From Acidobacteriota bacterium (GTDB lineage Bacteria > Acidobacteriota > Blastocatellia > RBC074): DNA of 64,000 nt. The stretch is from positions 417,572 through 481,571 of the forward strand of contig JADJXM010000001.1 of assembly GCA_016715865.1 (NCBI GenBank), read 5' to 3'. Within the stretch, counting starts at the first letter, position 1; the number at the start of each line of letters is the position of its first letter. Positions 14,401 to 17,682 of this stretch are shown here, one piece after another. The translations under genes were made by a program, and so were the position numbers. The notes below the pieces were generated by a model that made no database searches, was not told where the DNA came from, and worked only from the letters and a program-made list of their open reading frames with translations.

Positions 14401-16698
14401 CTTCGCCGTGTGCAGCAGGGGAGCCAGAACCGCTACTTCATGTACGACTCGCTCTCGCGGCTGATCCGGGCGAAAAATGTCGAACAAGCCGTCAACAGCA
14501 GCCTTGCCTTGAGCGATCCGGTCACCGGCAACAGCCAGTGGTTGATCAAGTATGAATATGACGCCAACGGCAACCTGTGGAAAAAGACCGATGCGCGTAA
14601 TGTCCTGACGACTTACGGCTATGACAGCCTGAACCGCAACACCTCGGTCAGCTACAACGACGGTATCACCGCGGCCCTGAATCGCTACTACGACGGTGCG
14701 ATCGCCAACGGCAAAGGGAGGCTCCATTACTCTCTCAGCTACAATTCTCACCCCGTCAGCGGTTACGCTTATTCGATCGACCAGGTCACGGGATACGATC
14801 CGATGGGACGCGTCCTGAGCCGGCAGCAGGGATTCCTCAACAGCGCGGGGACTCAGTGGCACTACTATCCGATGTCGAGAACCTACAATCTGGCGGGAGG
14901 AGCCACCTCCCAGACCTATCCTTCGGGGCGCAGCGTGAGCTATGGATACGATGTGGCGGGGCGATTGTCGAGTTTTACCGGCACGCTGGGCGACGGCGGC
15001 AGTCGAAATTATGCCACGGGAATAAGCTACACGGCCGCCGGGTTGATGAGCAGGGAAGTGTTCGGGATGCAGTCGGCGACGCTCTATCACAATCTTCATT
15101 ACAACAACCGGCAGCAACTGGTGGACATCCGCGTCGGCGACAATCAAAACGATGAATGGAACTGGAGCCGGGGCGCGCTGATCTTCTATTACGGGACGGC
15201 AGCGCGGGATTCGTGGAACGCCTTCGCCAACAGCCCCGACAACAACGGGAACGTGCTGAGGCAGATCAACTATGTGCCTTTGATCGGCGGCGGCTATGTC
15301 CATCCTCAGCTCGATGATTACAGCTACGACAGTCTCAACCGGGTTACATCGGTGACCGAAGCGCAGCTCGACAGCGGCGGAAACTGGACCTTCAACCTCT
15401 TCACGCAGAATTTCGACTATGACAGGTGGGGCAATCGGACGGTCTGGTGCTCGCCCTGTCAGCCCGGAGTCACAAATGACACCTTCACTATCGACACCGC
15501 CACTAACCGGATCACGGCCAAGAACGGCTACGCGATGACGTATGACCCGGCGGGCAATCAGAGCAACGACGTGACGGGATCGCGCTGGTTCGACGGCGAG
15601 AACAAGATGTACAAGGCGCAGCAGGGAGGGACGACCAGCCATTACGTTTATGACTCGGACGGCAAACGTGTGCGTCGAATCGTCGGCACGACAGAGACCT
15701 GGCAGGTCTACGCAATGGAAGGGGAGTTGATCGCGGAGTATAATGTGAACGGATCGCCATCGAGTCCGATAAAGGAGTATGGATATCGTGGCGGGCAGAT
15801 GCTGATCGTGGCTCAGACATCGCCGCTGGAGGTTAGATGGCTGGTGGCGGATCATCTCGGGAGTCCGAGGATGAACATCCGCGGGACGGGAGCGGACGGA
15901 GGCTCTTTGACAAGCGTGACGCGGCACGACTACCTGCCTTTCGGCGAGGAGTTAAGTGCCGGAATCCGCCGCAATGGAAGCAATGGCCAATACGGGTACG
16001 AGCCGCCTCCGGATGGAGTGAGGCAGAGGTTTACCGGCAAGGAGCGTGACGGCGAGACCGGACTCGATTACTTCCGCGCGAGATATTACGCTTCCACGCA
16101 AGGAAGGTTTACTAGCCCGGACGATTTCTTGAACGACACCCGCACTAATGATCCATCCAGTTGGAACCTTTACGCCTTCGTACGCGACAACCCTTTAAGG
16201 TACATTGACCCGACTGGCGAAGAGATTTACAGCACAAACTTGTCCGATGAAGAGAAGAAAAAGCTCATCGAGGACCTTGCAATGAAGGCAGGATACAAAA
16301 ACATTAGCTTTGACAAGAACAACAAACTTGTTATCGATGTAGCAGCAGGCTTCAGCGGCGGATCGGCCACGGCTAGGAAATTGCTCCTTGACGCTGTTAC
16401 CACCACAGAGAAGCGTTTTGATCTCACATCAGTGATCAATAAAGATGTTGCTTTCGCCCAAGTTGATGCTGGAACGATTACCTACGATGCTTCAGGTAAG
16501 CAGGTCGGGCCTGTTGTTTTTAGTGTGAAGCTGGACTTCGGGGACTTTAATCAGCTTAGGGGCGACAAAGAAGCGATTGCGGCATTCACAATTGGCATTG
16601 GCACCCTACACGAAATTGCTCACAAGCTCTATGGCGAGATTTTTTGGACACTCCCAACAGCAGTACTTACCCAGGACCGGTTGAAAACAACTACATAA
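11488..16698 (+). CDS. RHS/YD-repeat polymorphic toxin with a Sec signal peptide and a C-terminal HExxH toxin domain (may extend to 16874 via a frameshift)
   Basis: Signal peptide MKFPAGMHIIRLLSLSIVMVMFSAAGA, many YD repeats and an RHS core containing YLPFGE...RFTGKERDGETGLDYFRARYYASTQGRFTSPD...NLYAFVRDNPLRYIDPTGEE. A variable tail follows, with LHEIAHKLYGE. Confidence 0.9.
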   Translation: MKFPAGMHIIRLLSLSIVMVMFSAAGATGQTQNVTDGTTPPGIAPGAPLGTYPITDIETYNPYSGEMNLRFPLSVSGGRGSAAYSSVLSIGRQKWTVDKSYDPIYGQPIYTPQDSWWSQPIEFYKAPRMLARRVSDPYGLCVPPPEVGPSYTYTLTRLTFTAPDGTEYEFRDAATGGVKQQSSCQDGGAKFNRGTVFKTADGTAATLIASSNVYDATNLWDSNVGITGTTWLGGDMYLADGTRYHFRSEDGYVEWIRDRNGNRISFSYSVVSSVPLITNTTITDQLNRQVLIESGVTDATYGYGTRVTFRGFGGNTRYIFLTSKPLSQALRTTQPGDSSTVKTYQQLFALNGAFSNAYDPYRTTDIWLPDGRRYQLFYNVYGDVARVVFPTGGAIEYDWEGGIEGYDASGLFWGAEPFIYRRTIARRVYLTTSLSSLVNQTSYGKIQFTGWGASSSVIVRQKDDLNNVLNGDKHYYYTSPVDSLNTLDPFYYAPWNESKEKDTEALNSTDMVLRRISNTWADAPVPGGPRITETTIRLLDVSPNPVSKQTFSYDQYNNRTDVYEYDYGSGAAGALVRRTHIDYVTTNVVDGVTKNYDTDISIHIRNLPRRQIVYNASGGWMAQKEYEYDRYDSSAHHAPLVNRTNITGLDSGYTTSYRTRGNVTQVDAWINSSGTAIKTYAQYDIAGNVVKAIDANLNATIIDFSDRFGSPDDDARLNTAPSPNWLGSQSTFAFPTRATNALGHEAYTQYDYFLGRPVNTEDANGVVSSLAYNDSLDRLTQAIEARYKVGSGIPSVRRQKSFVYDDTNRTITTTGDRDLFNDNILTGRAYYDGLGRTWRTAAFEGNTGAGNTWSITDTVFDALGRVRQVSNPFRATDPATATAPSGTWTTTTYDALSRVLTVQTPDTAVVTTAYSGNVVTVTDQAGRQRRSLTDALGRLIRVDEPSGCNTCLGSVSSPLQPTSYVYDVLDNLRRVQQGSQNRYFMYDSLSRLIRAKNVEQAVNSSLALSDPVTGNSQWLIKYEYDANGNLWKKTDARNVLTTYGYDSLNRNTSVSYNDGITAALNRYYDGAIANGKGRLHYSLSYNSHPVSGYAYSIDQVTGYDPMGRVLSRQQGFLNSAGTQWHYYPMSRTYNLAGGATSQTYPSGRSVSYGYDVAGRLSSFTGTLGDGGSRNYATGISYTAAGLMSREVFGMQSATLYHNLHYNNRQQLVDIRVGDNQNDEWNWSRGALIFYYGTAARDSWNAFANSPDNNGNVLRQINYVPLIGGGYVHPQLDDYSYDSLNRVTSVTEAQLDSGGNWTFNLFTQNFDYDRWGNRTVWCSPCQPGVTNDTFTIDTATNRITAKNGYAMTYDPAGNQSNDVTGSRWFDGENKMYKAQQGGTTSHYVYDSDGKRVRRIVGTTETWQVYAMEGELIAEYNVNGSPSSPIKEYGYRGGQMLIVAQTSPLEVRWLVADHLGSPRMNIRGTGADGGSLTSVTRHDYLPFGEELSAGIRRNGSNGQYGYEPPPDGVRQRFTGKERDGETGLDYFRARYYASTQGRFTSPDDFLNDTRTNDPSSWNLYAFVRDNPLRYIDPTGEEIYSTNLSDEEKKKLIEDLAMKAGYKNISFDKNNKLVIDVAAGFSGGSATARKLLLDAVTTTEKRFDLTSVINKDVAFAQVDAGTITYDASGKQVGPVVFSVKLDFGDFNQLRGDKEAIAAFTIGIGTLHEIAHKLYGEIFWTLPTAVLTQDRLKTTT

Positions 16699-16875
16699 AT
16701 CCCATTAGGCGGGAGCTAGGGCTTGCAGAGAGATCTTACTACACAGCTCAAAGAGTTTCGGCTCCTTTCAATACCGCATTCAATAATGATGGCCGAGAGC
16801 TCAAGTTCAGGCTGAGCGGCAAGGATAAGATCTTGCGCTGGCGCAATGATCTTGTGGGAGGAAGGTTGCAGTAAA

Positions 16876-17682
16876 ATGAAACCAACCAGACTAGGTAAAC
16901 TATTACTGGCCTTGCTATGGCTTGCTTTAGGCAGCCCAGCACACACTGATAAGATAGATCTGGAGAGCGACCAGAACATCAGGAAATTGCTAGCGGAAAT
17001 GCGAGACCCACTCGTCAACAAGGCCGAATTATCCAAGCTCTTTCAGATCGGAGACAAGCAGATCAATGATCTGGTAAGCGCTCTTGAAGATTCAGACCGG
17101 CAAATCAGTTTGCGCGCTCAAATCGTGATCCGCTATCTGGGAAGTGAAGCCGGAATGTCTGAGTTAATTGAGTGGTACGGAAAGCAGCAGCAGTTTTCTA
17201 TGTCAGGTCCGATTCCTTCGCCATTAAGAAAGTGGGACTACAAAGTTATCAAGATGAACTACCTGAATCAACCTGCTGGAAGCTGGGTTTCAGTTGAAAG
17301 GTACATATATGCGCTCGCTATTGATGGATCTTCAGAAGCAAGTGTGACTCTGGCTCAAATAGCCGAAATGGTTAGAGTTATGGACGAAGGAGCAGTCGCC
17401 AAACGAGCGGTGCAACTCGTAAAGACCGCAAATGCGGGAGCAGCCTTGGGTAGCAATAAGGATTTAGCAAACTTGGTACTAAAGAATGCATTCTTCATTC
17501 TCACTGAAGATCGGAAAAATGCATCTGCACAACTTCTCGCCTTCAGTCATACAAGAGACAAAGCACTGGTCGAAGTGAGGGTCAATCGTGGGAGTTTTTC
17601 AGAAGAGTGGTATCATGTTGTGATGCGCAAACAAGGATCAGAATGGTACTTCTTGTCAATTACTCCTCTAGCTATCTCCTGA
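16876..17682 (+). CDS. candidate cognate immunity protein (secreted/lipoprotein-like, helical-repeat)
   Basis: It sits immediately downstream of the RHS toxin tip. Signal peptide MKPTRLGKLLLALLWLALGS. The coding region is AT-richer than the flanks. ATG at 16876 follows a TAA of the alternative toxin frame in a TAAAATG junction. Confidence 0.55.
   Translation: MKPTRLGKLLLALLWLALGSPAHTDKIDLESDQNIRKLLAEMRDPLVNKAELSKLFQIGDKQINDLVSALEDSDRQISLRAQIVIRYLGSEAGMSELIEWYGKQQQFSMSGPIPSPLRKWDYKVIKMNYLNQPAGSWVSVERYIYALAIDGSSEASVTLAQIAEMVRVMDEGAVAKRAVQLVKTANAGAALGSNKDLANLVLKNAFFILTEDRKNASAQLLAFSHTRDKALVEVRVNRGSFSEEWYHVVMRKQGSEWYFLSITPLAIS

Follow-up and report, generated by a model that had tools for sequence, protein, structure and literature searches.

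Polymorphic toxins of the RHS/YD-repeat type, such as Rhs-CT/RhsI of Enterobacteria and WapA/WapI of Bacillus, carry a C-terminal toxin tip and are followed by a downstream immunity gene. We analysed a gene of this kind in a 64,000-nucleotide stretch (hereafter, the window) of contig JADJXM010000001.1 of an Acidobacteriota bacterium (positions 417,572 to 481,571, forward strand), in which the reading frame of the toxin tip is almost certainly broken at a run of six thymines (T6). The gene resembles the described systems in its repeats, its core ending in ...DPxGE, its variable tip and the small coupled gene downstream, and orphan tip-immunity modules are present in loci related to the window. 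Unlike Rhs-CT and WapA, the protein has an N-terminus resembling a Sec signal, the putative immunity protein also has a signal-peptide-like start, and the tip falls in no toxin family of Pfam or NCBIfam. No PAAR, VgrG or type VI secretion system genes were seen adjoining the RHS gene in a search of the window that was not exhaustive.

The toxin tip across the T-run

The locus comprises the following features.

11488..16698, forward strand: RHS repeat protein as annotated, MBK9312952.1, 1736 residues in frame 1, an exact match to the GenBank entry
16012..16218, forward strand: RHS repeat-associated core, TIGR03696, residues 1509-1577 (E 1.3e-16; 60.9 bits against a cut-off of 32.5)
16225..16644, forward strand: N-terminal 140 residues of the toxin tip, IYSTNL...HEIAHKLYGEIF, in the annotated frame
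16609..16623, forward strand: HEIAH, predicted zinc-binding and catalytic motif (H129, E130 and H133 of the repaired tip)
16640..16645, forward strand: T6 run, site of the frame change
16644..16874, forward strand: C-terminal 76 residues of the toxin tip, LDTPNSS...VGGRLQ and then TAA, in the -1 frame
16857..16866, forward strand: Shine-Dalgarno-like GGGAGGAAGG within the last toxin codons, at the conserved VGG(K/R); the same arrangement occurs in homologous loci
16876..17682, forward strand: putative immunity gene, MBK9312953.1 (IPM55_01700), 268 residues with a signal-peptide-like N-terminus

MBK9312952.1 consists of a signal-peptide-like N-terminus, RHS repeats, the RHS-associated core, 140 tip residues and a final 17 residues read in the wrong frame. 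Judged by eye, its N-terminus, MKFPAGMHIIRLLSLSIVMVMFSAAGATGQ, has the look of a Sec signal peptide, and its repeats match PF05593 (RHS_repeat, E 1.5e-13) in Pfam and TIGR01643 (YD_repeat_2x, 19.5 bits against a cut-off of 15.8) in NCBIfam. The core ends in ...NPLRYIDPTGEE, the boundary to the variable toxin tip; upstream of this motif the architectures of homologues differ, and the tip, which aligns from the motif on, is common to them.

An earlier reading of the window from its letters alone (the sequence-only reading) had proposed that a frameshift at the T6 run would extend the tip by about 75 residues and bring it up against the immunity gene. The layout behind this proposal was confirmed. 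The annotated frame ends with the TAA at 16696-16698, leaving 24 sense codons and the stop after the second His of HEIAH, and no stop interrupts the -1 frame (positions divisible by 3) from 16560 until the TAA at 16872-16874, with A 16875 as the sole base between this stop and the ATG at 16876-16878. A switch of frame in the T-run yields ...HEIAHKLYGEIF|LDTPNSSTYPGPVENNY..., exactly the peptide that had been noted, and the extension proved to be 76 residues long and to form the conserved C-terminal half of the domain. The repaired RHS protein has 1795 residues against the 1736 annotated, gaining the 76 and losing the 17 wrong-frame residues. The codons of D142 (16647-16649) and E154 (16683-16685) both lie in the -1 frame.

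The fused query, a 216-residue tip (residues 1580-1795 of the repaired protein) with both frames joined at the T-run (IYSTNL...HEIAHKLYGEIF|LDTPNSS...VGGRLQ), matched 54 database proteins, the best of them at 64-66% identity and 100% query coverage, with E-values down to 2e-82. All homologues, in alignments that include one of 55 sequences, pass the T-run junction in one frame. Thirteen columns are invariant in the 55-sequence alignment, four before the shift (D104, D107, H129 and H133) and nine after it (D142, G151, E154, N159, R162, E164, L165, R170 and Y173). Between the window tip and 12 close homologues, identity was 0.57 ahead of the shift and 0.58 past it, compared with 0.55 and 0.61 for pairs of intact homologues; thus, the out-of-frame part shows no decay. 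An AlphaFold2 model of the fused tip, built with the 55-sequence alignment, reached a predicted local distance difference test (pLDDT) score of 93.3 and a predicted template modelling (pTM) score of 0.91, with most post-shift residues above 90 in pLDDT.

Complete proteins support the same joining of frames. Residues 21-1774 of P0105, a complete RHS protein of 1777 residues, align with residues 9-1793 of the repaired protein, and the distance from the end of the domain to the end of the protein is four residues in P0105 and one in P0151. The ortholog P0089, from a Logan contig, spans the first 94 residues only and says nothing on the tip. The annotated tail, WTLPTAVLTQDRLKTTT, has no 5-residue word in common with any of 234 retrieved proteins except the window's own, whereas the -1 frame continuation shares such a word with 126 of them. 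The sequence-only reading had allowed for homologous tips that end like the annotated protein, and here the result went in its favour: among the aligned homologues, none has a FWTLPTAVLTQDRLKTTT-like (FWTLPTAV-like) end or ends soon after HExxH.

By homology, the switch of frame falls within the T-run: the "KLY.EI" of the homologues corresponds to frame 1, up to 16641, and their "D.PNS" to the -1 frame, starting at 16647. A run of seven thymines (T7) would give GEIFLD and requires a one-base change; a run of four (T4) would give GEILD, which is equal in length to the two closest homologues. The spacing from the second His to the Asp ranges in the family from 7 to 12 residues, counting the Asp (+7 in stand-alone and +8 to +10 in RHS-type members), and T7 and T4 would both be acceptable. 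When the ends of long open reading frames (ORFs) were scanned for overlaps on both strands of the 64 kb, 19 pairs were found, and only the RHS pair has a homopolymer of at least five bases in the overlap; this result and the highly significant homology of the -1 frame segment show that the layout did not arise by chance.

The junction with the downstream gene follows the pattern of the family. In related loci (designated L001 to L006), a homologue of the putative immunity protein, of 263-270 residues and 40-53% identity, lies directly 3' of six of the seven RHS-type tip copies. One junction in L002, gagTAAaATGaga (TAAAATG), has the same form as that of the window; the second copy in L002 and the copy in L006 have ATGA overlaps, those in L003 and L004 have TGATG overlaps, and in L001 the junction is a GTGA overlap or an 11-nt gap. 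The coupled toxin-immunity junction suggested by the sequence-only reading is thus matched by equally tight or overlapping junctions in the homologues. Since the repaired stop abuts the gene at 16876 as in these loci, the repair restores the family-typical arrangement. From its position, GGGAGGAAGG could be the ribosome-binding site of the ORF at 16876.

Taken together, these results leave very little doubt that a single continuous domain, the toxin tip, is broken at the T-run, with the annotated protein being a truncated mis-call. The suspicion that the toxin domain had been mis-called in this way is borne out by the 54 homologues that read through the junction in a single frame, and we regard the GenBank entry MBK9312952.1 as mis-called because the toxin in fact carries on in the -1 frame, up to a family-typical junction. 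According to the model that we propose, the locus would encode a Sec-exported RHS (YD-repeat) polymorphic toxin with a HExxH zincin-like tip of about 216 residues, and 3' of it a translationally coupled gene for an exported immunity protein. A change in the length of the T-run, with T6 present and T7 or T4 in frame, would split the tip, so that the annotated protein would lose its last 76 residues, including both candidates for the third zinc ligand (D142 and E154). The intact product, of about 1795 residues, would end one base short of the immunity ATG.

The main value of this result is a correction of the annotation, by which the toxin tip becomes 76 residues longer and takes in the probable third zinc ligand. 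Families of toxin domains or toxin-immunity pairs built from such metagenome-assembled genomes (MAGs) would inherit the broken domain boundary.

The HExxH domain and its putative immunity partner

The tip, for which neither Pfam nor NCBIfam returned a family match, has a sizeable circle of relatives. A profile search of 1.84 billion cluster representatives (clusters at 50% identity) found 649 of them at E-values up to 0.001. Most are stand-alone proteins of 250-310 residues and a few are full RHS proteins; the stand-alone members have signal-peptide-like N-termini and occur in Blastocatellia, and in the related loci the stand-alone versions have no adjoining immunity homologue. A scan of genome contigs gave 12 genome matches to the tip, all in Acidobacteriota and mostly in Blastocatellia. 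In the 55-sequence alignment E130 is conserved in at least 90% of the members, and HEIAH, with its two invariant His residues, lies in a predicted helix (123-139) of the AlphaFold2 model. These features point to a zincin-like HExxH domain of an undescribed family, with a predicted role as a zinc peptidase.

Among described proteins, the closest in motif layout are the minimal zincin effectors GtgA, GogA, PipA and NleC (MEROPS M85; GtgA structures 6GGO and 6GGR), which, like the tip, combine HExxH with an Asp 7-10 residues further on. They differ in that they are type III effectors, whereas the tip is fused to RHS proteins or secreted as a stand-alone protein in Acidobacteriota. The likeness to M85 is not statistically significant: E is 0.58 against PDB sequences, the Pfam matches are under the cut-off, and 6GGO is not in the Foldseek top 50. 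Sub-threshold matches to Peptidase_M78 were obtained for 16 of the 55 members (best E 0.0021), and a few to M91, M85 and PipA; PF13678 (E 0.056) and PF07108 (E 0.064) were each matched by one of the 55 members, and neither match is significant. With the family profile, the only sequence match in the PDB was GtgA (6GGO), at the non-significant E of 0.58; it aligned "IH(Q)VVHALTHLQD...RGPVVEYTNIILKEMG" with HExxH, the invariant Asp and the GP..E(Y).N.I..E.G stretch. Although the model is confident, among the 50 matches listed by a Foldseek search against the PDB none had an E of 0.001 or less or a query-normalised TM-score above 0.22, and 6GGO was absent.

The zinc ligands of GtgA are His-182, His-186 and Asp-193 (PMC6166728), and the invariant D142 of the tip was aligned with Asp-193 in the weak match (E 0.58). 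E154, also invariant, lies 21 residues past H133 at the start of a predicted helix (152-164). The sequence-only reading had proposed that a Glu about 20 residues after HExxH serves as the third ligand, as in gluzincins. The Glu is indeed there and invariant; the gluzincin assignment is not established, given the alignment of D142 with the GtgA ligand, and the third ligand may be either D142, as in GtgA, or E154. Both residues are encoded past the T-run, and therefore the truncated toxin should be inactive either way.

As judged by eye, the downstream proteins in the related loci begin with a basic and then a hydrophobic segment and are signal-peptide-like. The immunity homologues with such a start are located as follows.

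L001, 3954-4745: immunity homologue with signal-peptide-like start
L002, 4794-5597: immunity homologue with signal-peptide-like start
L002, 3016-3840: immunity homologue with signal-peptide-like start
L003, 6882-7694: immunity homologue with signal-peptide-like start
L006, 1509-2303: immunity homologue with signal-peptide-like start

The signal-peptide-like starts of the immunity proteins suggest that the target of the toxin is probably in the periplasm or the cell envelope. The immunity proteins have no family assignment, MBK9312953.1 included when searched against Pfam and NCBIfam; the gene position and N-terminus of MBK9312953.1 are consistent with an immunity factor of the toxin that would act outside the cytoplasm. 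The repaired tip defines an unnamed HExxH family, whose members in Acidobacteriota (Blastocatellia) either form the tip of an RHS protein, next to an exported putative immunity partner, or are secreted on their own. This family is more interesting than the frameshift, and it is a reasonable target for the characterisation of an envelope-acting interbacterial toxin.

The related loci showed some further diversity of arrangement. Metagenome loci contain tandem or orphan HExxH tip-immunity modules 3' of RHS genes with other tips (L002, 2039-5597; L003, 1-7694). The other tips there include Ntox33 with DUF4279 and a TEN_YD-shell protein with DUF7674, and in L002 the HExxH tip-immunity pair is present twice in tandem, the two copies having diverged. 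In L005, from a Blastocatellia MAG, the match to the tip extends to residue 213 and is followed by about 27 more codons, and no immunity homologue lies 3' of it, unlike in the other six RHS-type copies.

Origin of the frame change

As to how the frame came to be broken, we lean towards a homopolymer indel left uncorrected in the consensus of a Nanopore metagenome of low coverage. In that case the organism would have an intact toxin, and the frameshift itself is probably not biology. The sequence-only reading had offered a choice between an error and genuine slippage, and the evidence from the source assembly favours error. The proteins of the window are encoded on a contig of 626,479 bp from an NCBI "Acidobacteria bacterium" MAG, which appears to be Kalu_18-Q3-R12-55_MAXAC.123 (JADJXM000000000), a member of Acidobacteriota, Blastocatellia, Pyrinomonadales (Singleton et al., 2021; PMC8012365, Supplementary Data 3). 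Its coverage was 13.97x with Illumina and 11.12x with Nanopore reads; in that study CANU was used to assemble the Nanopore reads, and the MAGs were polished with Racon, twice with medaka and with a single Illumina round of Racon (PMC8012365). Homopolymer indels that fragment gene calls are a known weakness of Nanopore assemblies, especially below about 40x (PMC9262707). Similar to the errors of R9-era Nanopore data (PMC9262707), the RHS gene of the window is split by a single-base homopolymer change, and a second break is nearby.

This second single-base frameshift affects a giant surface protein (PKD/Ig/DUF11) encoded on the minus strand, whose gene is divided into 57747..55438 (769 residues) and 55691..50715 (1658 residues); the joined product would have about 2350 residues. 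The protein contains a 249-nt (83-residue) tandem repeat in 12 near-identical copies. Eleven copies read GATCGC[A/G]GG[G/T]GCGACC, and the copy at 55692 reads GATCGCGGGGAGCGACC; its additional A interrupts the G-run precisely where the frame changes (break near 55670-55692). This break is probably another consensus error.

Several points weigh against an assembly error at the T6 run. No independent copy of the locus came up when metagenomes were scanned for the exact DNA, allowing a variable gap over the T-run, and the closest database protein is 66% identical to the tip. In contrast to a plain Nanopore consensus, JADJXM received Illumina polishing, and in unique sequence such as the tip, polishing at 14x should often mend a T6/T7 error; an error is thus likely, not certain. 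The other homopolymers of at least six bases within long ORFs, 38 in the window, are without a break, and the residual error rate is therefore not high. Furthermore, the PKD frameshift lies in a repeat array, which is harder to polish, and it says less about unique sequence.

The Illumina polishing of the unique tip and the unbroken state of the other long homopolymers would also suit a genuine mutation of very recent date (from T7 or T4 to T6), which we consider possible but on balance unlikely. The locus would then be a fresh pseudogene or a segregating variant without the third zinc ligand, and the immunity gene would be kept as still useful against kin with an intact toxin. The orphan and duplicated toxin-immunity modules in homologous loci indicate rapid turnover, and the MAG is heterogeneous in strains (strain heterogeneity, StrHet, 50; polymorphic rate 0.0104; PMC8012365), both of which fit such a mutation. 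However, the sequence after the shift has 76 codons without a stop, all invariant residues kept and undiminished identity, and the absence of decay means that any real mutation would have to be very recent. The low coverage and the other single-base frameshift nearby also speak for the assembly error rather than for a mutation.

It is very unlikely that T6 is real and in use, with the full toxin made in only a fraction of cells or transcripts through low-level -1 ribosomal slippage, transcriptional slippage or slipped-strand phase variation. The run does let the P-site tRNA-Phe re-pair from UUU to UUU on U_UUU_U, with UGG as the next 0-frame codon, the post-shift frame is wholly intact, and the repaired stop gives the coupled immunity junction. 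Programmed -1 frameshifting is known in dnaX and in IS3-family transposases, and as in those cases, a -1 change at a homopolymeric run would fuse the two overlapping ORFs of the window. Unlike them, the site lacks the elements of recoding: the 0-frame sequence GAG ATT TTT TGG holds no X_XXY_YYZ heptamer, UUG does not allow tRNA-Trp to re-pair, a stimulator of Shine-Dalgarno type is absent upstream, and there is no hairpin or pseudoknot, the downstream RNA being no more stable than shuffled sequences (-4.5 kcal/mol for 16646-16700, z +0.59; -13.5 kcal/mol for 16646-16735, z +1.59). Nor is the site conserved: at this place all 17 homologous gene copies, from 16 loci, keep to a single frame and lack a T-run. 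Programmed -1 frameshifting was therefore rejected on the grounds of the missing heptamer, the missing downstream RNA structure and the lack of conservation in homologues. T6 is also shorter than the tracts with efficient transcriptional slippage or phase variation. Less likely still is the use of T6 as a switch, through slipped-strand length variation or infrequent -1 slippage of ribosome or RNA polymerase, by which a minority of cells would make the full RHS toxin and all cells the immunity protein from its own Shine-Dalgarno sequence; if true, an interbacterial weapon of Acidobacteriota would be under bet-hedging control.

The least probable of the alternatives, and an extremely unlikely one, is that the 1736-residue protein is the true functional product and the homology in the -1 frame a remnant without a role. 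GenBank does list MBK9312952.1 as an ordinary protein; its tip, however, would be without nine of the 13 invariant residues, D142 and E154 among them, its tail recurs in none of the 234 retrieved proteins apart from the window's own, and the 76 post-shift codons show no relaxed constraint.

Other overlapping frames and the upstream region

With the exception of the PKD protein and a weak DDE_5 remnant, no split Pfam domains were found among the other overlapping ORF pairs of the 19. An A7 run at 38636, in the ORF pair 38380-38763 and 38612-39430, was considered as a third homopolymer frameshift and rejected, since the gene starts at the ATG at 38633 with a signal peptide.

In the segment 10787-10830, a C11 run (10795-10805) is located just after a TTGACT hexamer. 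Some 220 nt further on begins a small membrane-anchored ORF (11021-11440), which lies ahead of the RHS gene. Placing a homopolymer within a promoter-like spacer is a classic arrangement for phase variation; in a Nanopore assembly, however, the length of C11 is unreliable. Further upstream, the ORF 9626-10447, which a second frame (10239-10652) overlaps, has a weak match to a DDE_5 transposase (E 1.1e-4, below the cut-off); the region 9626-10652, close to the RHS locus on its upstream side, may represent a transposase that is degraded or frameshifted.

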